Source of the DNA: Escherichia phage vB_EcoP-22664BS1
Strand: one strand, 5' to 3'
Sequence record: MZ234009.1
DNA length: 39,133 bases
Of this stretch, positions 1-26,631 are shown in pieces; the first letter of the stretch is position 1; each line of letters starts with the position of its first letter. The notes under the pieces were generated by a model. It did not search any database and was not told where the DNA came from. It saw only the letters and a list, made by a program, of their open reading frames with translations. The position numbers were made by a program, and so were the translations under genes.

Positions 1-3000
1 ATGCAGGAACGAGAGGAGCGCTCTACGTGGTTCGGTTTCGGTGCGGCTACAGAAGCTGAAGTGAAGAACTCTATGGTCGGCGTGGCTATCCGCGCTGGTC
101 AGACCGAGGACTCACTTGATGTCATTGGCGATGTGTTCAACCCGACCCGCTGGAACAACCATAAGTGGTCTCGTGAGGAGTTGGACCAGATTCGTAACGC
201 TGGGGTTCTGCCTCAGTATTACGGGGTCATTACTGGTGGCTCCCCTCAGAACCTGACCGAGCTTATTAACTTTGCGCTTGAGAACCAGAAGTTGGACCAA
301 GAGAAGGCCAAGGCTGGGACTGGTGCTCAACTGGCGGCTGGTGTGATTGGTGCTGGCGTGGACCCTCTGACCTACGTTCCTATTGCTGGGCAGGTAGGTA
401 AAGGTGGGAAGCTAGTCAACAAGATGTTCACTGTGGCTGCTCAGTCTGGTGCTCTGGCTGGGGCATCCGAGATTGCTCGAACCTCAGTTGCTGGTGGGGA
501 CGCTCATGTGGCTGAGGCAATTATGGGCGGTGCTCTCTTCGGTGGGGGAATGACAGCTATCGGGGACGCTATCGGCAAGGCCTTAGGCAAGTCAACCAAC
601 GAGTTCGCCGGACCAGCCACACGTCTGGAAGCCCGTGAGACTGCACGTAATGTTGATGGTCAGGACCTGTCGCGTATGCCAATCCGTGAAGGAGAGGAGA
701 CCTTTAGTCATCAAGGTGTTAAGTTCGCAGACGTTCCGAACGAGCCGGGTAGTGTACGACTGGAAGATGGTTCAATCCTGATTGGTGAGAATCCTCTGAA
801 CCCTAAGACACGTAAAGTCTTTGACGAAGTGATTGAGCCTGAACGTGCCGCTGCTGGTGTGAACCTTGGTGGGCTGACTGAGATTGGCCTGAAGCTGCTT
901 CGGTCCGAGAACCCTGAGATTCGTGGAGTAGCTGCTGACTTAGTACGTTCACCGACTGGTATGCAGTCTGGGGCCTCAGGTAAAATAGGGACAACTGCGT
1001 CAGACGTATTCGAGAGACTTCGTGCTGTGGACCATCGGTTCTACAATGACATCGACGATGCGGTTACTGAGGCACTAAAGGACCCGTACTTCCAGACAGC
1101 ATTCTGGCGAGACTCTGGCGCATTCCGTCAAGACATCTATCAGCGCGTGTCTATGGCTATCGAAGATGGTAGCGGAAACCTGAAGGCTGAATTGACTCCG
1201 GGAGAACTGAAAGTCTATGACCTGCTGAAGAACCAGTTTGACGCCAAGCGTGAGATGATGGAGAACCCAGCTATGTTTGGTCGCCCAGACGCTCAGTCTA
1301 TCTTTCCGGGTAGCCGCTTCAAGGGAACATACGTCCCGCATGTGTATAGCAACCAGATGAAGGAGCTGTACATCAAGGAGCTTGGGAGTCCAGAGGCACT
1401 ACAGGAGGCCATCAAGAAGTCATGGTTGACCAGCTATGCGTCTCGACCTGAAGTCAAGAAACGTGTGGACGAGGAACTCTTAGAGGCTGACCCTACGTTG
1501 ACTCCAGAAGGACTTGCGGCTGCGGTCGATAAGTACGCCAACGATAAGGCTTATGGTATCTCTCACACCGAGCAGTTCGAGCGTTCATCCGTAATGGAAG
1601 AGAACATCAATGGTCTGGTGGGTCTGGAGAACAACAGCTTCCTTGAGGCTCGTAACCTGTTCGATAGCGATATGTCAATCGTCCTACCTAACGGTCAGAC
1701 CTTCAGTGTCAACAACCTGCGTGAGTGGGACATGGACAAGATTGTCCCGGCCTACAACCGTCGAGTTAATGGCGATATTGCTATCATGGCTGGTACAGGC
1801 AAGACCACGAAGGACATGAAGGACTTGGTTGAGACCCTGATGAACAAGGCTGGGGATGACGGTAAGTTGAAAGGTGAAGTATCTACCTTACGTGACACTT
1901 TGAAGATTCTAACTGGTCGTGCTCGACGTGATGGTGCTGATGATGCGGCCTTCGCTACCGTGATGCGCACAATGACAGACCTATCGTTCTTCGCTAAGAA
2001 TGCCTACATGGGTGTTCAGAACTTAACGGAGATTGGTGGTATGCTGGCTCGTGGTAACGTTCGTGCAATGCTTCATGGAGTCCCAATTTTCCGTGACCTA
2101 GCCTTCCGTAACAAGAAGGTTGGGGCCTCAGAGATTAAGGACCTGCACAATGTTATCTTCGGTAAGGAACTGGATGACTCAATCCGTCCGTCTAAACAGG
2201 ATGTCATTGACCGTCTGCGATCTTACAGTGACCTCGGTCGTGGTACAGCTACAGCTCTGGGGACTGCCAAGTATTACACTGGCGAACTTGCAGTACGCTC
2301 TCCGTTCACTAAAGTCCTCAACGGTACGACCAACTACCTGTTAGATGCTGGACGTCAGGGCTTCCTGTCTGACATCGTGGAGCATAGCCTGACTGGTAGT
2401 AAGCGTAAGTTCGATGACCGCTGGCTGAAGACCGCTGGTATCTCTGACGAGCAGTGGAAGGGCATTAAGTCCCTAATCCGTGAGTCAGTGACTCGTGGTC
2501 CAGACGGGAAGTACACCATCAAGGATAAGAAGGCGTTCAGTCAGGACCCAAGGGCTATGGACCTCTGGCGTATGGGTGACACCATCGCTGATGAGACCCT
2601 GCTCCGCCCCCACAAGCTGAGCAACATGGACGCCAAGGCTTATGGTCCGATAGCGAAGACTGTCTTGCAGTTTAAGAACTTCGTTATCAAGTCTATCAAC
2701 GGTCGAACCATGCGTACCTTCTACAATGCCACCAAGAACAACCGAGCTATGGACGCTGCGCTGTCAACGGTTATGTCTATGGGTCTGGCTGGAATGTACT
2801 ACATGGCTCAGGCGCACATAAAGGCTTACGCTATGCAGGACGGTCGTGACCGAGAGTATCTGAAGCAAGCCCTTAACCCAACAATGATTGGCTATGCGGC
2901 GCTGTCCCGTAGCTCCCACTTAGGTGGTCCTCTTGGGGTCGCCAACATTCTGGGTGGAATCGCTGGGTATGAGGACACTAAGATGCTCCGCTCGTCAATC

Positions 3001-3303
3001 CTTCCGCGCTCACCTACCGAGAAGACGGAGAAGCCAATCGCCTTTGGTGCTGCTTCCAGTGGTCCGGTAATGAATGTGGTCGGCAACTTCCTTGAGCAGG
3101 TCCCGGCTTTCGGCTATGCTGCTAACGTTGGTGCTACGGCTTACAACTTGGCGGGATACCTCAAGGCTGATACCCGTGTCAACGAGCGAGACTACATGAC
3201 CGGGATGTATAACACGTTCCGTGAACTTGTACCGAATGACCCGATTACCCAGAAGTTGCTGCTTGGAACGTTTGAGGAGCAGGGCATCCACATCAAGGAC
3301 TAA
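1..3303 (+). CDS. 16: Internal virion protein D (gp16), C-terminal 1100 aa; 5' partial at window start, continues in frame from 38549..39133 if the sequence is circular
   Basis: ORF track 1..3303; colinear similarity to recalled T7 gp16 from about residue 215 (STFFGF...GVDPLSYVP...SPTGMQSGASGK...GTYVPHVY...NPTMI); position before gene 17. Confidence 0.9.
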   Translation: MQEREERSTWFGFGAATEAEVKNSMVGVAIRAGQTEDSLDVIGDVFNPTRWNNHKWSREELDQIRNAGVLPQYYGVITGGSPQNLTELINFALENQKLDQEKAKAGTGAQLAAGVIGAGVDPLTYVPIAGQVGKGGKLVNKMFTVAAQSGALAGASEIARTSVAGGDAHVAEAIMGGALFGGGMTAIGDAIGKALGKSTNEFAGPATRLEARETARNVDGQDLSRMPIREGEETFSHQGVKFADVPNEPGSVRLEDGSILIGENPLNPKTRKVFDEVIEPERAAAGVNLGGLTEIGLKLLRSENPEIRGVAADLVRSPTGMQSGASGKIGTTASDVFERLRAVDHRFYNDIDDAVTEALKDPYFQTAFWRDSGAFRQDIYQRVSMAIEDGSGNLKAELTPGELKVYDLLKNQFDAKREMMENPAMFGRPDAQSIFPGSRFKGTYVPHVYSNQMKELYIKELGSPEALQEAIKKSWLTSYASRPEVKKRVDEELLEADPTLTPEGLAAAVDKYANDKAYGISHTEQFERSSVMEENINGLVGLENNSFLEARNLFDSDMSIVLPNGQTFSVNNLREWDMDKIVPAYNRRVNGDIAIMAGTGKTTKDMKDLVETLMNKAGDDGKLKGEVSTLRDTLKILTGRARRDGADDAAFATVMRTMTDLSFFAKNAYMGVQNLTEIGGMLARGNVRAMLHGVPIFRDLAFRNKKVGASEIKDLHNVIFGKELDDSIRPSKQDVIDRLRSYSDLGRGTATALGTAKYYTGELAVRSPFTKVLNGTTNYLLDAGRQGFLSDIVEHSLTGSKRKFDDRWLKTAGISDEQWKGIKSLIRESVTRGPDGKYTIKDKKAFSQDPRAMDLWRMGDTIADETLLRPHKLSNMDAKAYGPIAKTVLQFKNFVIKSINGRTMRTFYNATKNNRAMDAALSTVMSMGLAGMYYMAQAHIKAYAMQDGRDREYLKQALNPTMIGYAALSRSSHLGGPLGVANILGGIAGYEDTKMLRSSILPRSPTEKTEKPIAFGAASSGPVMNVVGNFLEQVPAFGYAANVGATAYNLAGYLKADTRVNERDYMTGMYNTFRELVPNDPITQKLLLGTFEEQGIHIKD

Positions 3304-3321
3304 ACTATCACTATAGGAAAC
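3299..3321 (+). promoter_or_regulatory. Phage RNAP promoter (phi17-like), variant with A at +3
   Basis: taaactatcactatagg matches the 11-copy promoter family; 45 nt upstream of gene 17 start. Confidence 0.65.
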
Positions 3322-3367
3322 TGGAGGCGCTACCATAGGTCTCCGTTTAAATCACAAAGGAGGCATA

Positions 3368-5548
3368 ATGTCCACGATTACACAATTCCCTTCAGGAAAC
3401 ACTCAGTACAGGATAGAGTTCGACTACCTAGCCAGAACGTTTGTTGTTGTTACGCTGGTGAATAGCTCTAACCCTACCCTGAACCGTGTACTGGAAGTTG
3501 GTCGAGATTACCGATTCCTTAATCCAACGATGATTGAGATGTTGGCTGACCAATCAGGTTTCGACATCGTTCGTATTCACCGTCAGACTGGAACTGACTT
3601 AGTGGTAGACTTCAGGAATGGCTCAGTGTTGACAGCTAGTGACCTGACCAATTCAGAGCTTCAGGCTATCCATATTGCAGAAGAAGGTCGAGACCAAACG
3701 GTTGACTTAGCGAAGGAATATGCCGATGCTGCTGGTAGCTCTGCTGGCAACGCTAAGGATAGCGAGGACGAAGCACGCCGAATCGCTGCGAGTATCAAGG
3801 CAGCTGGTAAAATTGGCTATATTACCCGTCGCTCCTTCGAGAAAGGCTTCAACGTTACAACAGGGAACGAGGTCCTGCTATGGGAAGAGGATGGTGCTTA
3901 TTACCGCTGGGATGGTACGCTTCCAAAGAACGTTCCCGCTGGTTCAACTCCTGAATCATCTGGTGGTATTGGGCTGAGTGCGTGGGTTAGTGTTGGTGAT
4001 GCGTCACTTAGAGCAAACCTGGCTGATAGTGATGGCGCTAAATACATAGGCAGTGGAGAAAGGACATTACTTGAGCACAACAATGATGTTTTGCACTCAA
4101 AAGACTTTCCAACACTGCAGGCAGCTATAGATGCATCTTTGCAAAAAAATGATCTACTGGTGTCTCCTGGCAATTATACTGAAAAAGTTACTATTGGAAA
4201 CGCGCAATTAAAAGGTGTTGGCGGGGCCACGGTACTAAAAACTCCGGCAGACTTTACAAACACTGTTCAGGTTAATTTAGCTACACCTCATTGGCAATTC
4301 CGCCATAGTGGTGGTTTTGCTATAGATGGTTCCGGGACAACCGGGGCCGTAGGTATTAGTTTTGACCCGTCAGACCAATATTCCGGACGTCATAATTTTA
4401 GTGATGTATACATCCACAACATCAACAAGGCCATTCAGAAGCCTTCCGGGAACATCGGCAATACTTGGAGAAATATTGGGATATCTACGTGTGATTGGGG
4501 GTATTACGCGATTAGTGGCTCAGAGATGCATTGCGGGGCCGATACCCTCTACAATATCCACTTCGATGGCATCTCCACCTATGCAGTCTATCTAGACGGC
4601 ACTGTCGATAATGGCGGGGGGGGCGCATGGTGGCTTAAAGACTCCATTATTGAGGCTTCCGGAGGTGGCGGGATATACTTAAAAAGTAAATCGGGCGACT
4701 GTCCTACATCTCCATGCGGGGTATCCAATATATGGATGGAAGCGATCGCAACATCACCGGCTGTTCAGGTAGACGGCGTGGCGCAAAAACCGCGAGTTCT
4801 CAAGTTGGTAGACACAGCGATATTCTTTGCTGAGTATTCTTATCTCAACAACATCGAGCTATCCAACTCCAACTTAGTAACTTATGGTTGCCGTTTTGAC
4901 AACGCTGATGGCAATCAGGATATTGTCGTGGATGCACAAAGTACCATTGTAGCCCATGACGTGTATTTAAACGGCAGTTCTGGAAAGGACGTTATTGTGG
5001 AGTCCGTAGCATCGCAATCTGCAACGATAGCTGCCACAAACTTATCTCTGAGGGGCAACTTAACAAGAGGGAGAGTATTTAATACGCCGACAGGGAATAA
5101 ATTAATGGCTATCACATTTGACTCAGGTAGCCATAATTTTTCTGGCAGCGGCACCGTTAACGGTTCGACTGTATCTGACGGACTTCACGCCGCTACATGT
5201 ACCGAATTTTCATTCCCCGGAGCCGGTTTATATGAAATGGTAGCGACAAGAACAACCATTACATCCGGTAGATGGTACGTGTGGGGAGTTAACTCACGCC
5301 TACAATCTGGCTCGGCGGATATTAGTATAACGTCAGGTATTACCATGGGTAGTGTTTACACAAAGCCGGGGGAGTGGATTAGCACTTTCGGTGTAGGAAA
5401 GGCATCTACCACTGGCACTGTAGCGCTATACGTTTCCACAGGAGGAGGTTCGGGAGCTACGGTCAGATTCAGTGACTTTTTCATCGCTGAGTTTACGACG
5501 CAAGCTCAGGCTTTAGCTTTCGCCAATTCAAGGATGTCGTTATCATAA
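3368..5548 (+). CDS. 17: Tail fibre / tailspike (gp17): T7-like N-terminal anchor domain plus non-T7 C-terminal beta-helix-like domain
   Basis: RBS aaggagg before ATG; N-terminal about 150 aa closely match T7 gp17 (MSTITQFPSGNTQYRIEFDYL...FLNP...); C-terminal about 570 aa Gly/Ser/Asn/Thr-rich with repetitive short strands. Confidence 0.85.
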   Translation: MSTITQFPSGNTQYRIEFDYLARTFVVVTLVNSSNPTLNRVLEVGRDYRFLNPTMIEMLADQSGFDIVRIHRQTGTDLVVDFRNGSVLTASDLTNSELQAIHIAEEGRDQTVDLAKEYADAAGSSAGNAKDSEDEARRIAASIKAAGKIGYITRRSFEKGFNVTTGNEVLLWEEDGAYYRWDGTLPKNVPAGSTPESSGGIGLSAWVSVGDASLRANLADSDGAKYIGSGERTLLEHNNDVLHSKDFPTLQAAIDASLQKNDLLVSPGNYTEKVTIGNAQLKGVGGATVLKTPADFTNTVQVNLATPHWQFRHSGGFAIDGSGTTGAVGISFDPSDQYSGRHNFSDVYIHNINKAIQKPSGNIGNTWRNIGISTCDWGYYAISGSEMHCGADTLYNIHFDGISTYAVYLDGTVDNGGGGAWWLKDSIIEASGGGGIYLKSKSGDCPTSPCGVSNIWMEAIATSPAVQVDGVAQKPRVLKLVDTAIFFAEYSYLNNIELSNSNLVTYGCRFDNADGNQDIVVDAQSTIVAHDVYLNGSSGKDVIVESVASQSATIAATNLSLRGNLTRGRVFNTPTGNKLMAITFDSGSHNFSGSGTVNGSTVSDGLHAATCTEFSFPGAGLYEMVATRTTITSGRWYVWGVNSRLQSGSADISITSGITMGSVYTKPGEWISTFGVGKASTTGTVALYVSTGGGSGATVRFSDFFIAEFTTQAQALAFANSRMSLS

Positions 5549-5692
5549 AAACAACCTCAGCCGAATCGGGTTATTTATCATCAGAACGGTATTGAATCAT
5601 CGAAGGTTGTGGAGGTAGAGGCTAACTACACGTTGACCAACGTATGATAACAACTTTGGGTCACGGACGACCCGCTTTAAACTGGAGGTTTT

Positions 5693-5887
5693 ATGATTGA
5701 GTTAGACTTCAAGAATGAGGTCCTCAAAGCCTCGCCTATCGTCGGGACCGCTGCGGCTGATGGTGCCAGTCGGTTCTTCTTTGGGCTAACGCTCAACGAA
5801 TGGTTCTACGTCGCTGCTATCGCGTACACCGTGGTGCAGATTGGCGTCCTAATTTACAAGACGATTAAGAGCGGAGGTAAGACATGA
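5693..5887 (+). CDS. 17.5: Class II holin (gp17.5)
   Basis: Matches recalled T7 gp17.5 (FFGL.LNEWFYVAAIAYTVVQIG); RBS ggagg; hydrophobic segment. Confidence 0.85.
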   Translation: MIELDFKNEVLKASPIVGTAAADGASRFFFGLTLNEWFYVAAIAYTVVQIGVLIYKTIKSGGKT

Positions 5888-6147
5888 CGCAGATGGACTT
5901 AGAGAAGTTCCTGTTAATGCTGGACACAGAACGTGCTAGACTAATGCTGCAAGACCTGCGGGATGACTCTAAGCGTTCGCCCCAGCTCTACAACGCCATT
6001 GAGAAGCTACTGGCTCGTCACAACTTCGTGCTAAGCAAGGTGTCTGTTGACGAGAAGACGCTCGCTGATATGGAGGCCCTGAACGCAGAGTACGATAAGG
6101 TGCTCTCCGCTACGGAAGATAATGACACTGGGTATGGAGTGCAGTAA
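5884..6147 (+). CDS. 18: Terminase small subunit (gp18)
   Basis: ATGA overlap with holin stop; similarity to T7 gp18 (RSPQLYNAI.KLL.RH.F); synteny. Confidence 0.85.
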   Translation: MTQMDLEKFLLMLDTERARLMLQDLRDDSKRSPQLYNAIEKLLARHNFVLSKVSVDEKTLADMEALNAEYDKVLSATEDNDTGYGVQ

Positions 6148-6159
6148 ATCTCTTAAGTG

Positions 6160-6205
6160 TTAGACTCAAGGTCATTACTGTGTGTAGTGGCCTTTATGGT
6201 TAACA
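6160..6205 (+). promoter_or_regulatory. Conserved hairpin element (RNase III processing-site-like, R18.5 position)
   Basis: agactcaaggtc...gtggcctttatgg motif shared with elements at 15301 and 22521 and with recalled T7 RNase III sites. Confidence 0.45.
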
Positions 6206-6257
6206 CTAACTAGTGGAGGAGACTCTACGTGAAATCTGATAAACCGGGAGGGCAACT

Positions 6258-6707
6258 ATGCTCGAATTTTTAAAGAGAGCGGCTCCGTGGTTACTTGCAG
6301 CAGTGATGTTTGCTGGTGGCTACCACACCGCTAACAATAAGTGGGGGGCTAAGGTCAATGCAGAATACACCTCGAATCTTAAGGCATCGGAAGATACAAG
6401 GCTTGCTGTCCAAGCTGAAGTCAACAAAGTGTCCAAACGGTTTCAGGACGAAATGTCCTCGCTGGAAGGCAGCACTGATAGGATTATTGCTGACCTTCAG
6501 TCTGACAATAAGCGGTTGCGCATCCGAGTCAAACCAACGAGTGGAACCACGCAAAGTGACGGTCGATGCTTCATTGATGGTTACGCCGAACTTGACGAAC
6601 GAGATGCTAAACGTCTTATCGCCATCGGAGTGAAAGGAGACAAGTGGATTAAGGCCCTTCAAGACACTGTGAGAGCCTTACAGCAAGAGAAGGAGGTGAC
6701 GCATTGA
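6258..6707 (+). CDS. 18.5: i-spanin (gp18.5, Rz-like)
   Basis: Similarity to T7 gp18.5 (MLEFL...DRIISDLRSDNKRLR.RVK); N-terminal TM segment. Confidence 0.85.
6358..6633 (+). CDS. 18.7: o-spanin (gp18.7, Rz1-like lipoprotein) embedded in +1 frame inside gp18.5; start codon uncertain (6310 or 6358)
   Basis: Embedded ORF with lipobox-like LTISGC and similarity to T7 gp18.7 (PRWKGALIGL...ISGCASES...SLMV.PNLT.EMLNV). Confidence 0.6.
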   Translation: MQNTPRILRHRKIQGLLSKLKSTKCPNGFRTKCPRWKAALIGLLLTFSLTISGCASESNQRVEPRKVTVDASLMVTPNLTNEMLNVLSPSE

Positions 6708-8467
6708 GTAAAGACTTAGTGGCGCGTCAGGCGCTAATGACTGCACGTATGAAGTCAGACTTCGTGTTCTTCCTGTTCGTCCTGTGGAAAGCTCTGTCGC
6801 TCCCAGTCCCTACTCGCTGTCAGATTGACATGGCGAAGAAACTATCGGCTGGGGACAACAGGCGCTTCATCCTACAGGCGTTCCGTGGTATAGGGAAGTC
6901 CTTCATTACGTGTGCCTTCGTTGTCTGGAAGCTATGGAACAACCCAGACTTGAAGTTCATGATTGTGTCGGCCTCAAAGGAACGAGCCGATGCTAACTCC
7001 ATCTTCATCAAGCGAATCATCGACCTCATGCCTCAGCTTCAGGAACTCAAACCTAAGCAGGGTCAGCGAGATGCGGTTATCAGCTTCGACGTTGGACCGG
7101 CTAAGCCAGACCACTCACCTTCGGTTAAGTCCGTTGGTATCACTGGTCAGTTGACTGGTAGTCGTGCTGACATCCTGATTGCCGATGACGTGGAGGTTCC
7201 GAACAACTCAGCGACTCAGGCTGCACGAGACCGTCTATCAGAGCTTGTGAAAGAGTTCGACGCTATCCTGAAGCCGGGAGGTACGATCATCTATCTGGGT
7301 ACTCCTCAGAACGAGATGACACTGTATCGTGAGCTGGAAGGTCGTGGGTACACCACTACTATCTGGCCCGCTCGTTATCCACGCGACAGGAAGGACTGGC
7401 AGTCTTACGGTGACCGTCTGGCACCGATGCTTCAGGTAGAGCTTGAAGAGGACCCTGAGTCCTTCTACTGGCGTCCGACTGATGAAGTACGCTTCGATGA
7501 TACGGACCTGAAGGAGCGTGAGCTGTCCTACGGTAAAGCTGGCTTCGCTCTACAGTTCATGCTTAACCCGAACCTGAGTGATGCTGAGAAGTATCCTCTT
7601 AAGCTCCGTGACCTTATCGTAGCCGACTTGGACCCAGCGTCCAGCCCAATGGTCTACCAATGGTTGCCAAACCCTCAGAACAAGCGTGAGGACGTTCCTA
7701 ACGTGGGACTCATGGGTGACTCGTACCACACGTATCAGACTGTAGGTTCTGCCTTCAGCTCATACACCCAGAAGATTCTGGTCATTGACCCTAGTGGTCG
7801 TGGTAAGGATGAAACTGGTTATGCGGTACTGTATCAGCTCAACGGCTACATCTTCGCTATGGAAGTAGGTGGTATGCGTGGTGGCTATGAAGACTCTACT
7901 CTGGAAGCACTGGCTAAGATTGGTCGTAAGTGGAAGGTCAACGAATACGTCATTGAGGGTAACTTCGGTGATGGTATGTACCTTGAGCTATTCAAGCCTG
8001 TAGCGGCCCGTATCCATCCTGCTGCTGTAACCGAAGTGAAGAGTAAGGGTCAGAAAGAACTCCGCATCTGTGACGTTCTTGAGCCTATCATGGGGTCTCA
8101 CCGACTTATCGTCAACGCTGCTGCTATCGTCCAAGACTATCAGACAGCCTCTGACAAGGATGGTGTTCGTAACCCTATCTACTCTCTCTTCTACCAGATG
8201 ACACGTATCTCTCGTGAACGTGGAGCCTTGGCACACGATGACCGACTTGATGCGCTGGCTATAGGTGTACAGTTCTTCGTTGAGTCTATGGCTAAGGATG
8301 CCAACAAGGGAGAACGTGAAGTCACTGAGGAGTGGCTGGAGGAACAGATGGAGAACCCACGGAAAGGCTTCGAGTCCATCCACACTGAGTTCTGGGACAA
8401 TGGGGTCCGGGTAACTCACAATACGGACGACGAGCTTGGACTAGGGTCATACGTTACGTTCCACTAG
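6704..8467 (+). CDS. 19: Terminase large subunit (gp19), probable TTG start
   Basis: Strong colinear similarity to T7 gp19 ([21 protein letters not shown]...[18 protein letters not shown]...); RBS aaggagg 6 nt before TTG. Confidence 0.95.
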
Positions 8468-8561: not shown

Positions 8562-8584
8562 ACTTAACTATCACTATAGGGAAG
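8562..8584 (+). promoter_or_regulatory. Phage RNAP promoter near right genome end (phiOR-like)
   Basis: acttaactatcactatagggaag matches promoter family. Confidence 0.65.
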
Positions 8585-9130: not shown

Positions 9131-9163
9131 GATGAGTTTTGGACCAAAAGTTTGAGACCACAT

Positions 9164-9350
9164 CTCACACTTCAAGAACCTCAAGTCTCCCCATAGGTCC
9201 TCTTTAAGTCCAGACCAAAGGCCCTACCACAGTCTATCATAAGGTTAGACCGATGGTCCAGACTTCAGGTCAACGATAGGTCTAGGCTATGGCTTAGGGA
9301 AGGACGATAGGTTGGGACTATGGGTCTGTCTTTGAGTCTCTATCTGTATC
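9164..9350 (+). repeat. Approximate terminal repeat / genome-end region (single collapsed copy); boundaries estimated
   Basis: tctcacacttcaagaacctcaagtctccccatagg resembles the T7 left end (TCTCACAGTGTACGGACCTAAAGTTCCCCCATAGG); followed by gtctgtctttgagtctctatctgt like the end of the T7 terminal repeat. Confidence 0.45.
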
Positions 9351-9561: not shown

Positions 9562-9590
9562 TTGACTATAGGTCCAGACTATGGCCTAAT
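9562..9590 (+). promoter_or_regulatory. Candidate host sigma70 early promoter (A1-like): TTGACT, 17-bp spacer, CCTAAT
   Basis: -35 perfect, -10 weak; position about 400 bp from inferred left end. Confidence 0.3.
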
Positions 9591-9701
9591 AGCTTCCGTC
9601 AACACGACACGGCAACAACCGGATAGTGAAGACGCCGGTCCGGTCCGGTTAAGTAGTCAGCCTGTAAGACATACGAACAACAGGCAACCGACAGAAAGTA
9701 G

Positions 9702-9731
9702 TTGACAAGCAGTAACGATAAGATGTAAGAT
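9702..9731 (+). promoter_or_regulatory. Candidate host sigma70 early promoter (A3-like): TTGACA, 18-bp spacer, TAAGAT
   Basis: Strong resemblance to recalled T7 A3 promoter region including downstream gtaccacat and ctctttaacaatctgg. Confidence 0.55.
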
Positions 9732-10963: not shown

Positions 10964-11191
10964 ATGAACACAATCACTGGTGCCATAACCAAAGGTTTTC
11001 GAGCAATTTTCGGTGAAACGCAAGAAGTATGCACCAATCATAAATTCGTACTTTCTTGCGTAGCAGGTGACGAGTTTGACGGGTTCGATAAACTGGTGGT
11101 TTGCGACCATTGCGGACAAGAGGCTATCCAACACTCAAACGGTAAATTTGAATTAATAGACGATAGCCTTACAGAAGGAGACGGCGAGTAA
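10964..11191 (+). CDS. Early small protein with four Cys (C-x8-C...C-x2-C), putative zinc ribbon
   Basis: ORF track; RBS gagggaag; cysteine pattern in translation. Confidence 0.5.
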   Translation: MNTITGAITKGFRAIFGETQEVCTNHKFVLSCVAGDEFDGFDKLVVCDHCGQEAIQHSNGKFELIDDSLTEGDGE

Positions 11192-11323
11192 CCTAAATAA
11201 ACAGGAGAGAACCAAATCATAGCTTGACCATAACACTGACGTGATGGTACTGAGTGATAGACGAGAGGTCATCGACTGATAGGTGGCCTCAAAGATTACC
11301 ACTTACATTGATAGGAGTTAACT

Positions 11324-11428
11324 ATGAGCACTGCAATCATCTGGACTATCTCAGGCTTCGTAGCGTGGGGAATGTTTACTCTAGTCTGCAAACTACCGGT
11401 CCTTACTCAACTGTTATGGGGCTTATGA
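11324..11428 (+). CDS. Small hydrophobic peptide (34 aa)
   Basis: Strong RBS aggag 6 nt before ATG; hand-translated MSTAIIWTISGFVAWGMFTLVCKLPVLTQLLWGL; stop overlaps next start (ATGA). Confidence 0.35.
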   Translation: MSTAIIWTISGFVAWGMFTLVCKLPVLTQLLWGL

Positions 11429-11628
11429 CTTTGAGTATCGCACTATTGATAGCCATAGGCTATGGACTTATCGCCTACGTGCTGGTGAGAGACATCAACA
11501 AAGCGCGTAAAGTCTACAAATTCAACTATGTACGTCTGGGTAGCTGGACTGTACGTCAACCTAACGGACGATTCATGCGTAACTTAGCGAACGTCTGGGC
11601 TATAGCAACACTTGGGAGCAAACTGTAA
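11425..11628 (+). CDS. Early small membrane protein (67 aa)
   Basis: In frame with track ORF 11254..11628; predicted TM helix (LSIALLIAIGYGLIAYVLV); ATGA coupling to the upstream peptide. Confidence 0.45.
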   Translation: MTLSIALLIAIGYGLIAYVLVRDINKARKVYKFNYVRLGSWTVRQPNGRFMRNLANVWAIATLGSKL

Positions 11629-11954
11629 TGAACAAGTCATACGGGATTAATCTGGTACACTCTATGGACGCAGACATGCAAATGTTAAGCCTACTGGCTA
11701 CCGGGTATCGTCACGGAACGTCAAGTCACTCCGCACGTCAACAGCAGGAGCGGGACCGGGTACTGCAAGCAAGACTCCGGGCTGAGGGCCATAAGTCCGA
11801 ACTAATGTGTCTGGCGTATGGTGGACGACCAATCACTGACGATGGTAAACTTTTAGTCTCAGGCTGGAAGGCGATAGACCAACGGTCAACCATCAAGCAC
11901 ACTACTCATGGTGACTTCAGTCATCTCCACGCTAACCCGCTGATATGCAAGTAA
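11628..11954 (+). CDS. Early protein, unknown function (108 aa), immediately upstream of RNAP where T7 carries gene 0.7
   Basis: ORF track; TAATG overlap with upstream gene. Confidence 0.5.
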   Translation: MNKSYGINLVHSMDADMQMLSLLATGYRHGTSSHSARQQQERDRVLQARLRAEGHKSELMCLAYGGRPITDDGKLLVSGWKAIDQRSTIKHTTHGDFSHLHANPLICK

Positions 11955-11959
11955 TTCTG

Positions 11960-11982
11960 ACTTAACTATCACTATAGGACTC
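11960..11982 (+). promoter_or_regulatory. Phage RNAP promoter upstream of the RNAP gene (A at +3)
   Basis: acttaactatcactataggact matches promoter family; lies about 75 nt upstream of gene 1 start. Confidence 0.6.
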
Positions 11983-12051
11983 AAGGTCTAAGACTCCAAG
12001 TGAAAGACCAAAGAGACTTTAAGTGAAAGACTAATAACAAGGACTTTAAGT

Positions 12052-14733
12052 ATGAGCGTCATCTCTATTGACAAGCACGACTTCTCTGATGTGTCGAACG
12101 CCATTGAGCCGTTTAACCTACTGGCTGACCACTACGGGCAAGACCTTGCAGTCAAACAGCTTCAGCTTGAGCACGAGGCATACACTGAAGGCGAGCGACG
12201 TTTCATCAAGAACCTTGAGCGCCAGACCGAGCGCGGGGAACTGGCAGACAATCAGGTAGCCAAGCCTCTTATGCAGACTCTTGTTCCTAAGATTGTGCAA
12301 GCCGTCAAGGAGTGGCACGAAGGTCCAGACGGGAAGCTGTCAACCTCTCGTCCGAGCGTAGCGTTCACCATGTTGAGCACTGAAGAGAAGGCCGTAAAGG
12401 ACCGCTCTTTGCGCATCTCCTGCGAATCTGCTGCGGTTATCATACTGAAGGTCATACTCTCCAAGCTGATCAAGCCTGAAGGGATACCGATTACACCGAT
12501 GGCATCCGCGATAGGGCGCACACTTGAGGACGAAATCCGCTTCGGTCGCATCCGTGACAAGGAGAAAGAGCACTTCAAGAAGGCGATAGCTGATAACCTG
12601 AATAAGCGGGCCGGGGCGTCCTACAAGAAAGCCTACATGCAAGCGGTCGAGGCATCCATGCTGGAGCAAGGCCAACTGGAAGATGCGTGGGGGACTTGGA
12701 GTCCTACAGAGGCTGTCCACGTTGGCGTCAAGATGCTTGAGATTGTCATCCAGTCAACACAACTGGTAGAGCTTAAGCGGTACGGTGCTGGCAATGCAGC
12801 GGCTGACGTTGAGATGGTCCACCTGTCAGACTTCTGGGTCAAGAAGATGGCACAACGAGGATTCAGCCTTGCGGGTATCGCTCCAGTCTACCAGCCTTGC
12901 GTCGTTCCACCTAAGCCGTGGACCGGTGTCGTAGGAGGTGGGTACTGGGCCAAAGGACGCAGACCACTGCCACTGATTCGCTTAGGGTCTAAGTCTGCGG
13001 TGGCACGTTACGAAGACGTGTACATGCCTGAAGTCTATGACGCTGTGAATATCATCCAGAATACACCTTGGAAAGTGAACAAGAAGGTTCTGGACGTGGT
13101 GAACATGGTCGAGAAGCTGAACAACACGCCTATTGATGACATCCCTCAGATGGAACCGCTGAAGCCTGAGGACTATGCGGGTGAGACTGAAGAAGAACTC
13201 AAGGCATGGAAGAAGGCTGCTGCTGGTATCTATCGCCGCGAGAAGGCCAGACAGTCACGAAGATTGTCACTGAGCTTTATCGTCAACCAAGCGAACAAGT
13301 TCTCTCAGTTCAAGGCCATCTGGTTCCCGTATAACATGGACTGGCGTGGGCGCGTCTACGCTGTTCCGATGTTCAACCCTCAGGGTAACGACATGCAGAA
13401 GGGTCTTCTGACTCTGGCAGTCGGTAAGCCTATTGGTGCTGATGGTTTCAAATGGCTGAAGGTCCACGGTGCAAACTGCGCGGGTGTCGATAAAGTCACC
13501 TTCGAGGAGCGTATCAAGTGGGTGGAAGATAACCACGACAACATCATGGCTGCTGCTAAGGCGCCGATGGATAGTATTGAGTGGTGGGGCAAGTTAGACT
13601 CTCCGTTCTGCTTCCTAGCGTTCTGCTTCGAGTATGCTGGCGTAATGCACCACGGCTTGTCTTACTCCTGCTCGCTGCCGATAGCGTTCGATGGGTCCTG
13701 CTCTGGGATTCAGCACTTCAGCGCTATGCTTCGCGACCACATCGGTGGACATGCAGTAAACCTGACGCCATCCGGTAAGGTCCAAGACATCTACCGAATC
13801 GTGTCTGACCGCATTGAGGAGGAGCTTAAAGTCCTACTGGTTAACGGTACGGACAACGAGATGGTAACTCACGAGGACAAGAAAACTGGTGAGATTACCG
13901 AGCGTCTCAAGCTGGGGACACGAGAGCTTGCCAGTCAGTGGCTTACCTACGGTATGTCACGAAAGGTCACTAAGCGTTCGGTCATGACTCTGGCCTACGG
14001 GTCGAAAGAGTACGGCTTCGCAGACCAAGTTTACGAGGACATCGTGATGCCAGCGATTGACTCAGGGTCTGGCGCTATGTTCACTGAACCAAGCCAAGCA
14101 TCTCGCTTCATGGCTAAGATGATTTGGGAAGCTGTGAGTGTGACCGTAGTTGCTGCGGTTGACGCGATGAAATGGCTTCAGGGTGCTGCCAAGCTGCTTG
14201 CTGCTGAAGTGAAGGACAAGAAGACTGGAGAAATCCTGAAGCCTTGTCTTCCGGTACACTGGGTCACACCTGATGGTTTCCCTGTCTGGCAGGAATACCG
14301 CAAGAAGGACACCACTCGTCTGAACCTGATGTTCTTAGGGTCATTCAACCTTCAGCCTACCGTCAACAAAGGCACGAAGAAAGAGCTGGACAAGCACAAG
14401 CAGGAGTCAGGCATTAGCCCGAACTTCGTCCACTCACAAGATGGTAGCCACCTCCGCAAGACTGTAGTCCACACGCATCGCAAGTACGGCGTGATGTCAT
14501 TCGCAGTGATTCACGATAGCTTCGGGACCATCCCGGCTGACGCTGAGTATCTGTTCCGTGGAGTCCGTGAGACGATGGTCGAGACCTACCGCGACAACGA
14601 TGTGCTGCTTGACTTCTACGAGCAGTTTGAATACCAGCTTCACGAGAGCCAGAGAGACAAGTTGCCTGAGCTTCCGAAGAAAGGTAAACTGAATATCGAA
14701 GACATCTTGTCTTCAGACTTTGCATTCGCTTAA
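12052..14733 (+). CDS. 1: Single-subunit DNA-directed RNA polymerase (gp1)
   Basis: Extensive colinear identity to T7 RNAP (FNLLADHYG, PCVVPPKPWTG, WFPYNMDWRGRVYAV, DGSCSGIQHFSAML, HDSFGT, C-terminal DFAFA). Confidence 0.97.
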   Translation: MSVISIDKHDFSDVSNAIEPFNLLADHYGQDLAVKQLQLEHEAYTEGERRFIKNLERQTERGELADNQVAKPLMQTLVPKIVQAVKEWHEGPDGKLSTSRPSVAFTMLSTEEKAVKDRSLRISCESAAVIILKVILSKLIKPEGIPITPMASAIGRTLEDEIRFGRIRDKEKEHFKKAIADNLNKRAGASYKKAYMQAVEASMLEQGQLEDAWGTWSPTEAVHVGVKMLEIVIQSTQLVELKRYGAGNAAADVEMVHLSDFWVKKMAQRGFSLAGIAPVYQPCVVPPKPWTGVVGGGYWAKGRRPLPLIRLGSKSAVARYEDVYMPEVYDAVNIIQNTPWKVNKKVLDVVNMVEKLNNTPIDDIPQMEPLKPEDYAGETEEELKAWKKAAAGIYRREKARQSRRLSLSFIVNQANKFSQFKAIWFPYNMDWRGRVYAVPMFNPQGNDMQKGLLTLAVGKPIGADGFKWLKVHGANCAGVDKVTFEERIKWVEDNHDNIMAAAKAPMDSIEWWGKLDSPFCFLAFCFEYAGVMHHGLSYSCSLPIAFDGSCSGIQHFSAMLRDHIGGHAVNLTPSGKVQDIYRIVSDRIEEELKVLLVNGTDNEMVTHEDKKTGEITERLKLGTRELASQWLTYGMSRKVTKRSVMTLAYGSKEYGFADQVYEDIVMPAIDSGSGAMFTEPSQASRFMAKMIWEAVSVTVVAAVDAMKWLQGAAKLLAAEVKDKKTGEILKPCLPVHWVTPDGFPVWQEYRKKDTTRLNLMFLGSFNLQPTVNKGTKKELDKHKQESGISPNFVHSQDGSHLRKTVVHTHRKYGVMSFAVIHDSFGTIPADAEYLFRGVRETMVETYRDNDVLLDFYEQFEYQLHESQRDKLPELPKKGKLNIEDILSSDFAFA

Positions 14734-14748
14734 CAACAGGAGAAGTAT

Positions 14749-14979
14749 ATGTCAATGAAACTTGTAGCACACAACAGGGTATTCAACGATGGGTCGGGAC
14801 GTTGCCATGTAGAGCTGACTTATAAGGATTTAATCATTCTCCGAGACAGATTACAGTCGGGTGTGACTGGGTGGATTCAACCTAACGAGTACAACCTTAT
14901 AGCTTCGATTGATGAAGTTCTTAACGCGTGGATGGAAGACGAGCGCATTCAGTATCCGTCATTCCCTCTAATTAGATAA
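14749..14979 (+). CDS. Hypothetical protein (76 aa)
   Basis: ORF track; RBS aggaga. Confidence 0.5.
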   Translation: MSMKLVAHNRVFNDGSGRCHVELTYKDLIILRDRLQSGVTGWIQPNEYNLIASIDEVLNAWMEDERIQYPSFPLIR

Positions 14980-14989
14980 GGAGAGAGTT

Positions 14990-15205
14990 ATGAAATTTGC
15001 ACACAAGCATACTGGCGTTAATGGTGGGACTCAAATCGTGACCGTAACAGAACACAACGGCAAGGGTCTGGTGAAGACCACGGTCATCCCTACCGAGATG
15101 TCCAAGCAGCTTAACATCCCGTTCAAGACTCTTGTATATCTGGTCGAGTCCAGCCACGAGAAGTACCTGAAGGACGCAGTGTCCAAGCTGGAGCAGGCCA
15201 AATGA
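14990..15205 (+). CDS. Hypothetical protein (71 aa)
   Basis: ORF track; RBS aaggagag. Confidence 0.5.
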   Translation: MKFAHKHTGVNGGTQIVTVTEHNGKGLVKTTVIPTEMSKQLNIPFKTLVYLVESSHEKYLKDAVSKLEQAK

Positions 15206-15280
15206 CAGACATACAGTTACTGGCCCTGTGGCTGGGAGCACTCGCAGTATTCACTTTAATCCAACGCAGAAGAGGTTAAC

Positions 15281-15303
15281 CCTAAACTATCACTATAGGC
15301 TTA
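15281..15303 (+). promoter_or_regulatory. Phage RNAP promoter (phi1.1-like)
   Basis: cctaaactatcactataggc. Confidence 0.65.
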
Positions 15304-15345
15304 GACTCAAGGTCATGACTCAAAGTCGTGGCCTTCATGATTAAC
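15301..15345 (+). promoter_or_regulatory. Conserved hairpin element (RNase III-like, R1.1 position)
   Basis: ttagactcaaggtcatgactcaaagtcgtggccttcatgatta. Confidence 0.45.
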
Positions 15346-15376
15346 CCTAAATAAACACTACTGGAGATTTAACCGT

Positions 15377-15556
15377 ATGTATCAGAACACTATCAACTTC
15401 GAGCGCATCCGTGAACGTCAGCAGACTGAAGGTTACATCCCTAAGGGCCGCAAGCTGAACAAGACTAAACGTGGCGGTGGTATCAAAGGCGCTTTCAGAA
15501 ACGCTGAAGGTAAAGACTCTCTGGTCAACCAAGAGAAATACTTCGTAGGAGCATAA
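15377..15556 (+). CDS. 1.1: gp1.1-like small basic protein (59 aa)
   Basis: Hand-translated; KGRKLNKTKR motif as in T7 gp1.1; RBS ggag. Confidence 0.6.
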   Translation: MYQNTINFERIRERQQTEGYIPKGRKLNKTKRGGGIKGAFRNAEGKDSLVNQEKYFVGA

Positions 15557-17092: not shown

Positions 17093-17128
17093 AACCCAGT
17101 GGTCTTAGGACTGCTGGGTTTCTTTGCG
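17093..17128 (+). terminator. Putative intrinsic terminator (early terminator TE position)
   Basis: 7-bp stem aacccag/ctgggtt, 14-nt loop, followed by tctttg. Confidence 0.5.
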
Positions 17129-17789: not shown

Positions 17790-17871
17790 GTGGTGCGAGC
17801 GTAAATTTGAGGAGACAGGTAACGTCGATTACCTTCAGCTCTACAACTTATGGAAGGAGCGTGGTCTATGA
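17776..17871 (+). CDS. Small ORF (31 aa), gene 1.8 position
   Basis: Hand-translated [31 protein letters not shown]; stop overlaps gene 2 start. Confidence 0.3.
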
Positions 17872-18026
17872 CTGACGTAGAGAAGAAATACATCGTGGAA
17901 CTTGAGGGACGTACCCAGTACTTCGAGGTTCCGGTGTACGCAAAGTCTCTTGAAGAGGCTACACTGAAGTCCCAAGAGTATGAGGACGCTGGGTTTGTGG
18001 TCGGACGGATTCGCCCTGAGACCTAA
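17868..18026 (+). CDS. 2: Gp2-like inhibitor of host RNA polymerase (52 aa)
   Basis: [13 protein letters not shown]....[14 protein letters not shown] matches T7 Gp2 core (FEVPIYAETLDEA...AGFEVTRVRP). Confidence 0.7.
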
Positions 18027-19232: not shown

Positions 19233-19723
19233 TGAGCAAGAAGTTTAAACTGTTAGTAGATGCGCATGGCTGGCCTAGTGGGACTATAGTTACCAAGTGT
19301 GAGAATGACCCCGTACCAGATTCAAGAATGACCCTAGTTGAGTGCCAGACTCCAGGCGCATACAAACATGGGTCTAACGGCTGCAATACTCAGCCTGAGG
19401 GTATGTGGGGAGCATGGGTCCTTAATTGGAAACTTGAGGAAATCAAGCCGGAAGAGAAACTCACTGGTGTCCAAACCACTCAAGTCCTGCCAGCTTCGAG
19501 CGTACCGCCTGTGACTTTGAAGCGTGAAGTCCTGACCATCGACAAGATTGGTGTAGGCCAGACGTTCATCGTCCATGGAAAGCCTGAAGAAGTTTACGTG
19601 AAGATTAGCAACTCACACGTCTTCAACCATAAGCATCTCCAGATGCACACCACGGACGCACAACGCTTCACCCAGCACCTGAATCTGGTTGTCGTAGAAT
19701 TGGTGGTGTACAATGGTAAGTAA
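19232..19723 (+). CDS. Hypothetical protein (163 aa) between endonuclease I and lysozyme; no T7 counterpart recognised
   Basis: ORF track 19229..19723; AGGAG 8 nt before ATG at 19232; TGATG overlap with gene 3. Confidence 0.55.
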   Translation: MSKKFKLLVDAHGWPSGTIVTKCENDPVPDSRMTLVECQTPGAYKHGSNGCNTQPEGMWGAWVLNWKLEEIKPEEKLTGVQTTQVLPASSVPPVTLKREVLTIDKIGVGQTFIVHGKPEEVYVKISNSHVFNHKHLQMHTTDAQRFTQHLNLVVVELVVYNGK

Positions 19724-20226
19724 GGTACAGTTCAATCCACGGTCCCGGACCGACGCTATCTTCGTTCACTGTTCGGCTACCAAGCCAGAGATGGACATCG
19801 GGGTAGAGACCATCCGTATGTGGCACAAGCAGCAAGGCTGGCTGGACGTAGGCTACCACAGAGACCATCCGTATGTGGCACAAGCAGCAAGGCTGGCTGG
19901 ACGTAGGCTACCACTTTATCATCAAGCGCGATGGTACTGTGGAAGAGGGACGCCCTGTCAATGTCGTAGGGTCACACGTTAAGGACTGGAACTCACGGTC
20001 TGTAGGCGTCTGCCTTGTAGGTGGAATTGACGCTAAGGGCAAGTTTGAAGCTAACTTCACTCCAGCCCAGATGAACTCCCTGCGCAACAAGCTGGCTGAC
20101 CTGAAGGACTTGTATCCTCAGGCAGAAATCAAGGCTCACCACGATGTAGCACCAAAGGCTTGCCCAAGTTTCGACTTGCAGCGCTGGCTTAACACTAACG
20201 AACTGGTCACTTCCGACCGAGGCTAA
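19713..20226 (+). pseudogene. 3.5: Lysozyme / N-acetylmuramoyl-L-alanine amidase (gp3.5) disrupted by a 55-bp tandem duplication (19805..19859 = 19860..19914) causing a frameshift
   Basis: Track ORFs 19713..19982 and 19873..20226 both match T7 lysozyme (N part TDAIFVHCSATKP...WHKQQGWLDVGYH; C part FIIKRDGTVE...HHDVAPKACPSFD...ELVTSDRG); the 55-bp unit is repeated exactly and deleting one copy restores one ORF of about 153 aa. Confidence 0.7.
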
Positions 20227-20240
20227 TAAGGAGAATTAAC

Positions 20241-20453
20241 ATGATTAAACTTATTGAATTTCTGGGTCGTCTGGTTGTGCGTGGCTATTCTCGTGCTGCG
20301 AGTGTGGAACGAAAAGTCGCATCTGCTGCGGCTAAAGGTGCGGAAGCGGCTGCTGCGGAAGCGGATAGTCTGCGCATCAAGTCTCTGGACGCTGGCCTAC
20401 GTGCCAAAGGTCTTGACAAGAAAGCCGAGCAACTGAAAGGCTTCTTCAGCTAA
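20241..20453 (+). CDS. Hypothetical Ala-rich small protein (70 aa)
   Basis: ORF track; RBS aaggaga. Confidence 0.5.
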   Translation: MIKLIEFLGRLVVRGYSRAASVERKVASAAAKGAEAAAAEADSLRIKSLDAGLRAKGLDKKAEQLKGFFS

Positions 20454-20471
20454 ACTATCACCTTAGGGATG
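20449..20471 (+). promoter_or_regulatory. Degenerate phage promoter-like sequence (caccttaggga; mismatches at -4/-3)
   Basis: ctaaactatcaccttagggatga. Confidence 0.35.
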
Positions 20472-20516: not shown

Positions 20517-20595
20517 GTCTCCATAGCTCAAACGGTAGAGCGGCGGGTCGTGATGGCCTATTGCGATTAGGGTTCGAATCCCCGTGGAGACGCCA
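20517..20595 (+). tRNA. tRNA-like element (canonical acceptor stem, D-arm, T-loop and encoded CCA; irregular anticodon arm; isotype unresolved, possibly anticodon CGU)
   Basis: gtctcca/tggagac 7-bp acceptor stem, gctc-aaacggta-gagc D-arm, ggttcgaatcc T-loop, 3' gcca; the anticodon arm only pairs with a G-G mismatch and the variable region is 9 nt. Confidence 0.4.
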
Positions 20596-26570: not shown

Positions 26571-26631
26571 TTAGGACCTAAGATATGACTATAAGATAGA
26601 CTTTAGTCTTAACTTAAAGAGGAGATTCAAG

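Follow-up and report, generated by a model that had tools for sequence, protein, structure and literature searches.

The intergenic stretch directly upstream of the RNA polymerase gene (gene 1) of Escherichia phage vB_EcoP-22664BS1 appears to carry a functional promoter for that same polymerase, of the early or middle (class II-like) type, that would represent a fixed feature of the genus Kayfunavirus; we place the probability of this reading at about 0.78. The identification of the site, at positions 11960-11982, as a phage promoter is strongly supported by its full match to the consensus, by the maintenance of its position across the genus, and by its having changed together with the specificity of the polymerase. 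Positive autoregulation of gene 1 is the natural reading of this arrangement and would follow from the layout itself, in which a cognate promoter and a 75-nt leader precede the gene, with no terminator or strong hairpin between them.

The window, as the term is used here, is the whole stretch of 39,133 nucleotides in sequence record MZ234009.1. A megablast search with positions 11000-15500 matched 559 phage records, the best of which was Escherichia phage vB_EcoP-101118UKE1 (99.8% identity), with LM33_P1, HC13 and further Kayfunavirus members after it; that search and the map of open reading frames, which displays the T7 gene order on the plus strand throughout, assigned the window to the genus Kayfunavirus (K1F-like, Studiervirinae, T7 group). 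The record is a circular permutation of the genome, in which window position 9163 corresponds to the left ends of K1F and EcoDS1 and position 9171 to that of LM33_P1. Genes 16 to 19 are therefore located at positions 1-8467, and the early region starts after position 9163. The record of LM33_P1 (LT594300) displays two peculiarities, a polymerase (2925-5606) split into two coding sequences (2925-4892 and 4920-5606) and an ocr-like gene labelled 'Phage protein kinase', both of which are probably faults of sequence or annotation and not biology.

The promoter family and the site before gene 1

A search of the window with the 18-mer TTAACTATCACTATAGGA, allowing up to three mismatches, located ten matches, every one of them on the plus strand, where dinucleotide shuffles gave an expectation of 0.02 matches by chance. 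Nine of these copies occupy the positions of phi17, phiOR, phi1.1, phi1.6, phi2.5, phi6.5, phi9, phi10 and phi13, and the tenth precedes gene 1. The latter copy, TTAACTATCACTATAGG, is found exactly at 11960-11982, with the G at 11977 as its +1 position, and the related string acttaactatcactataggact is found at 11958-11979. The earlier note had described a member of the promoter family with +1 near 11977 and about 75 nt upstream of gene 1, a description that the sequence bears out, the distance from the +1 G to the gene 1 ATG (12052) being 75 nt. The copy is intergenic and lies on the same strand as all of the genes, and the stop codon of the preceding gene ends about 5-6 nt before promoter position -17 (Table 1).

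The match of this copy to the consensus is perfect from -17 to +2, and the core from -7 to +1 (CACTATAG), together with the GG initiation, is reproduced exactly (TCACTATA followed by GG). When scored with a leave-one-out matrix, derived from the nine remaining copies and spanning positions -20 to +8, it reached 28.1 bits, as compared to 15.1 bits for the best site outside the family in the window, and 21.5-40.5 bits for the other nine copies when scored in the same manner; its score was reduced solely by positions +3 to +8 (ACTCAA) and -20 to -18. No phage promoter lies closer to the left end, from which it is some 2.8 kb away, and it is located downstream of the host promoters and early genes. 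In a matrix scan of the window, the stretch from the left end (about 9163) to 11960 contained no phiOL-type copy. One candidate for an equivalent of phiOL, TGACTATAGG at about 9563-9572, was rejected: it departs from the promoter sequence at -7 and across -9 to -14, fails the matrix, overlies the -35 region of a host promoter annotated in EcoDS1, and is not a phage promoter.

Table 1. Features of the window that bear on the transcription of gene 1
Feature	Position	Strand	Remarks
Phage promoter copy, phiOR position	8562..8584	+	After gene 19, before genome end
Host (sigma-70) early promoter	9562..9598	+	Homology to annotated EcoDS1 promoter 469-505
Host early promoter, TTGACA, 18 nt, TAAGAT	9702..9731	+	Consensus scan; matches EcoDS1 host promoter 609-647
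Upstream early gene, gp0.38-like, 108 aa	11628..11954	+	Named gp0.38 in K1F and EcoDS1 records
Phage RNA polymerase promoter, -17 to +6	11960..11982	+	TTAACTATCACTATA followed by GGACTC; class II-like by start sequence
Leader of predicted phage-polymerase gene 1 transcript, 75 nt	11977..12051	+	Kept in 8-species alignment
Shine-Dalgarno AGGA	12040..12043	+	8 nt before gene 1 ATG; invariant in 8 Kayfunavirus sequences
Gene 1, single-subunit RNA polymerase, 893 aa	12052..14733	+	PHROG 414, E = 0
Next phage promoter downstream, phi1.1 position	15281..15303	+	GGCTTA start, +1 at 15298
Early terminator TE for host polymerase, after ligase gene	17095..17126	+	Homologous to annotated EcoDS1 TE
gp2-type inhibitor of host polymerase	17850..18026	+	
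gp3.5 lysozyme/amidase gene	19713..20226	+	Frame shifted by 55-nt tandem duplication

The ten copies differ in the sequence at which transcription would start, which is GGG in the phiOR, phi6.5, phi10 and phi13 copies, GGA in the gene 1, phi1.6, phi2.5, phi9 and phi17 copies, and GGC in the phi1.1 copy only. An A at +3 had been pointed out earlier as a feature that the gene 1 copy shares with the phi17-like copy; both do carry it, but it is not peculiar to those two, being present in five of the ten copies (+1 at 3316, 11977, 17165, 18039 and 29404). GGA starts are the rule among the early and middle copies, and the division between GGG, GGA and GGC is largely alike in the relatives GW1, EcpYZU01 and Dev2. 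The T7 promoters phi1.1B, phi1.5 and phi1.6 likewise have GGA starts, and the 23-nt architecture and the CACTATAGG core are found both in the class II promoters of T7 and in the window site.

Two weaker promoter-like sequences were also observed in the window. The first, TAAACTATCACCTTAGGGATGAG at about 20449-20471 (+1 at 20466; 14.2 bits), lies before a tRNA-like gene and gene 4, and the EcoDS1 record carries an annotated promoter under the homologous stretch; the second, CTAAGATATGACTATAAGATAG at about 26577-26599 (+1 at 26594; 15.1 bits), lies 29 nt past the phi6.5 copy and has a counterpart in EcpYZU01. The tRNA-like gene itself (20517-20595), located directly before the primase/helicase gene, was called as tRNA-Thr with anticodon CGT by ARAGORN and scored 36.7 bits against the Rfam tRNA family; it is annotated as tRNA-Thr in phage vB_EcoP-U8, and its full stretch was covered in only 34 of 180 matching records. 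Genes for tRNA are unusual among phages of the T7 group.

Downstream of the promoter, the leader is A-rich, and its positions +1 to +12 are conserved beyond what a promoter needs. The sequence GACTTTAAGT occurs in it twice, and the second occurrence covers the last part of the ribosome-binding site together with the spacer up to the ATG. No terminator-like site was found between +1 and the ATG, single-sequence folds of the leader were not significant (z = 0.16 and -0.42), and a consensus fold of eight species contained nothing significant, with a weak conserved 5-bp stem, GGTCT/AGACC, remaining. On these single-sequence and consensus folds, an RNA structure or RNase III site was rejected as the main feature of the leader. 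A scan of 11900-12100 at gathering thresholds found no Rfam family.

Several further observations concern the same stretch and its counterpart after gene 1. Within 12000-12054 the leader contains a near-duplicate of the gene 1 translation start region (GAGACTTTAAGTGAAAGAC as compared to AGGACTTTAAGTATGAGC), the upstream member of which reads GTG AAA GAC TAA and could form a mini-ORF of three codons; AAGTGAAAGAC is also present twice in the leader. Directly after the promoter at the phi1.1 position lies a strong 12-bp hairpin (15309-15335, z = -3.5, with no shuffle folding as well), in the position of the T7 RNase III site R1.1. The motif GACTCAAGGTC precedes or begins this hairpin and is also found after the gene 1 promoter, and the shorter GACTCAA is found after some promoters in GW1 and Dev2.

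Conservation across the genus and polymerase specificity

A 146-nt query comprising the promoter, the leader and the start codon of gene 1 was matched by 220 phage records, 218 of which align over 80% or more of it and 168 of which share 95% identity or more; the hosts of these phages include Escherichia, Salmonella, Enterobacter, Citrobacter, Cronobacter, Pectobacterium and Hafnia. Across the matched records the leader extends for 75-82 nt and is then followed by ATGAGCGT. An exact-pattern scan of IMG/VR yielded 26 matches, 21 of them with the full promoter preceding the motif, and in 20 of those 21 contigs ATGAGCGT lies 76-83 nt downstream, the remaining contig being without such a start within the stretch examined. 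In an alignment of eight species the site holds its position even where the upstream gene differs.

Three variants of the site were distinguished: CTTAACTATCACTATAGG in the window, K1F and EcoDS1; CTAAACTATCACTAAAGG in Dev2, IMM-002 and LET1; and TTAAACCCTCACT(A/G)TAGG in GW1 and EcpYZU01. In the last two phages almost every promoter, the gene 1 copy included, has AACCCTCACT and not AACTATCACT, and ACCCTCACT replaces ACTATCACT in almost every promoter. The product of gene 1 is 64% identical to the T7 polymerase, and its residues N758 and N766 align with N748 and R756 of the T7 enzyme, which are the specificity-loop residues that read promoter positions -11/-10 and -9, as established by work on T7 and T3. 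The polymerases of GW1 and EcpYZU01 carry changes in the specificity loop at exactly these two positions, from N to D and from N to R at window N758 and N766. Among the genomes compared, -10T/-9A pairs with N758/N766 in 11, whereas GW1 and EcpYZU01 combine -10C/-9C with D753/R761, and in each case the copy before gene 1 agrees; its specificity region (-12 to -8) matches the specificity loop of the cognate polymerase.

This co-change argues strongly that the gene 1 copy functions, since a site ignored by the polymerase would have had no reason to follow the change in its specificity. The change seen in both GW1 and EcpYZU01 probably occurred once in evolution, and so counts once. In Dev2, IMM-002 and LET1 the gene 1 copy has an A at -2, which the other strong copies of Dev2 do not have, and this departure from the consensus of that clade fits a promoter held at moderate strength. 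A T7 polymerase provided with the K1F specificity loop has been found to drive a promoter whose binding region has the K1F-subfamily consensus (17-fold induction), and to be orthogonal to the other polymerase-promoter pairs tested (PMC3458549).

Predicted autoregulation and competing explanations

The proposed circuit would begin with host RNA polymerase starting at about 9562 and about 9702 and generating the first gene 1 mRNA. The newly made phage polymerase would then bind 11960-11982, initiate at the G at 11977, and transcribe gene 1 behind a 75-nt unstructured leader bearing its own ribosome-binding site, after which it would read on into genes 1.05 to 1.3 and further, provided that TE does not stop it, as in T7. 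Because the leader holds neither a terminator-like site nor a significant fold, every transcript begun at 11977 would carry gene 1. Gene 1 would in this manner belong to the regulon of its own product, creating positive feedback, and the phage promoter would keep up polymerase synthesis once gp2 shuts off the host enzyme. A search of the early proteins did not turn up a gp0.7 kinase.

If the T7 class II promoters are a guide, the gene 1 copy, with its GGA start, probably has less strength than the late promoters with GGG and responds more strongly to lysozyme, which would shut the promoter down later in infection and bound the loop. The matrix score of this copy, described as the lowest of the ten on account of its +3 to +8 sequence, and the -2A of its counterparts in Dev2, IMM-002 and LET1 suggest that it may be weak, in which case the gain of the feedback could be small. 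Initiation at 11977, the size of that gain, and the lysozyme brake are points that we infer. Placing T7 gene 1 under T7 promoters reportedly gave no faster growth, which cautions against the assumption of a fitness benefit. The literature searched contained no transcript data for any Kayfunavirus.

The lysozyme gene of this isolate displays an anomaly of its own, in the form of a perfect 55-nt tandem duplication (19805-19859 and 19860-19914) that puts the N-terminal 49 and C-terminal 122 amino acids of gp3.5 out of frame with one another. The duplication is absent from seven relatives whose identity elsewhere in the stretch is 99.5-100%, and could be either a real, unstable mutation or an artefact of assembly. 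In T7, gp3.5 inhibits the phage polymerase, and its loss would take away the usual brake on polymerase activity. A tentative and rather doubtful extension of the proposal is that the Kayfunaviruses lost phiOL and the RNase III hairpin and gained a class II promoter, creating a natural autogene, and that in the isolate with the frameshifted gp3.5 the loop is perhaps unbraked; if true, such an unbraked loop would provide a natural test case for the tolerance of feedback in a T7-like phage.

Among the alternatives, the one that survives best holds that the promoter is real, but has been kept for priming of replication or as an early point of entry at which the fast phage polymerase would take over the internalization of the genome and the transcription of genes 1.05-1.3, with transcription of gene 1 as a by-product. 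Promoters of T7 do serve also as origins and drive genome entry, and the primary T7 origin is located at phi1.1A/B; the gene 1 copy is the phage promoter nearest the left end of a genus that lacks phiOL, and both the A-rich leader and the extended conservation of its first 12 positions are in keeping with such a role. That explanation is nevertheless unlikely, because a second promoter (+1 at 15298) is found right after gene 1, at the position of the T7 origin promoters, because the gain in entry time would be small given that gene 1 must first be in the cell and translated, and because any transcript from 11977 crosses gene 1 and would result in autoregulation regardless.

A further alternative arises from comparisons of the region with other members of the T7 group. 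In the curated T7 record phiOL has position 405. Gene 1 is directly preceded there by the minor E. coli promoter C (3113), and the first phage promoter past the gene is phi1.1A (5848). The statement in the earlier note that the first phage promoter of T7 follows gene 1 consequently holds for the immediate neighbourhood of that gene, but overlooks phiOL, which can in principle send transcripts of the phage polymerase through the early region. The window site resembles phiOL in being a phage promoter upstream of gene 1, and differs from it in location: phiOL lies 405 nt from the left end and upstream of the host promoters, and the window site is neither within a few hundred nucleotides of that end nor upstream of those promoters, adjoining gene 1 instead. 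The curated records of K11 and BA14 likewise contain phiOL and show no phage promoter adjoining gene 1; beside that gene, T7, K11 and BA14 have a hairpin instead. As for an SP6 promoter ahead of the SP6 polymerase gene, a look-alike at 2104 with three mismatches was all that was seen. The genus therefore differs from T7 in a coherent manner, lacking phiOL and an R1-type hairpin and having a phage promoter adjoining gene 1.

These same comparisons could be taken to indicate that the site replaces both phiOL and the RNase III hairpin R1, and that it mainly provides a defined, stable 5' end for the gene 1 mRNA instead of feedback. The spacers before gene 1 in T7 and BA14 contain strong hairpins (z = -2.5 and -3.0, as compared to -0.42 for the window leader), the T7 hairpin occupying the position of R1, and no long stable hairpin with an internal loop, of the kind found at T7 R1, is present in the window leader; phiOL is present in T7, K11 and BA14 and absent from EcoDS1 and the window, and the motif TCAAGGTC is common to the spacers of BA14 and the window. 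We regard this explanation as very improbable, since a 5' end made by the phage polymerase would still belong to a self-driven gene 1 mRNA, and would add to feedback without excluding it, and since the weak conserved GGTCT/AGACC stem remains in the leader. The last alternative, that the site is a chance or decayed look-alike unused by the polymerase, draws on its having been called the lowest-scoring of the ten copies (28.1 bits, with the others given as 21.5-40.5), and is effectively refuted by the comparative data, that is, by the conservation of the site in 220 records and its change in step with polymerase specificity, as well as by the chance expectation of 0.02 matches and its exact agreement from -17 to +2.

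Precedents and significance

A phage promoter at this location has been annotated before: the RefSeq record of EcoDS1 (NC_011042) carries the entry 'regulatory, promoter, phi' at 2244-2266, immediately before gene 1 at 2336, where the 23-mer and the whole leader are identical to those of the window and occupy the same place between gp0.38 and gene 1. In K1F the promoter is unchanged and the leader differs from that of the window by one base; the K1F records examined are without regulatory annotation. An engineered counterpart of the proposed circuit also exists, in the form of the T7 autogene, in which the T7 polymerase gene is placed behind a T7 promoter and expression becomes self-amplifying. 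The autogene and the window share the same circuit, and the layout of a self-amplifying polymerase gene, with a cognate promoter upstream and no terminator between, is found in the window; the autogene, however, is artificial and driven by a strong class III promoter, whereas the window site is natural and class II-like, and the genome normally also encodes lysozyme. The literature on the autogene includes PMC1500874 and PMC6395690.

Published studies of other phages contain related observations. A 2026 paper on the Kayfunavirus Sparklingdew listed eight CTWAACTATCACTATAGG repeats as promoters, one of which falls at the 3' end of the gene before that of the polymerase (PMC13298934). In the T7-like Pseudomonas phage LUZ100, a promoter termed phi1 was mapped directly upstream of the RNA polymerase gene by ONT-cappable-seq, and it was hypothesized that host read-through makes the first polymerase, which then amplifies its own transcription (PMC10134795). 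LUZ100 is a distant, temperate-like relative in which a MarR-type repressor was proposed to gate phi1, whereas the window is without a lysogeny module; the start site of LUZ100 was mapped, whereas that in the window is predicted. For the Vibrio phage phiA318, the predicted promoter phi-A8 lies upstream of the kinase and polymerase genes, and its authors suggested autoregulation (PMC4099482); that promoter, which is solely predicted, differs in consensus and stands ahead of two genes.

The genus-wide gene 1 promoter, already annotated in EcoDS1, and the idea of self-amplification, already published for LUZ100 and phiA318, are accordingly not new, and the worth of the present analysis lies in confirmation and in the evidence that the site has tracked the specificity of the polymerase, with no claim of discovery. 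A natural loop in which a polymerase acts on its own promoter would bear on models of the timing of T7-type infections and on engineered expression systems of the K1F type. The textbook T7 rule, in which gene 1 is purely an early gene transcribed by the host, would fail for a large and therapeutically used genus that takes in K1F, LM33_P1, EcoDS1 and many phages of Salmonella and E. coli.
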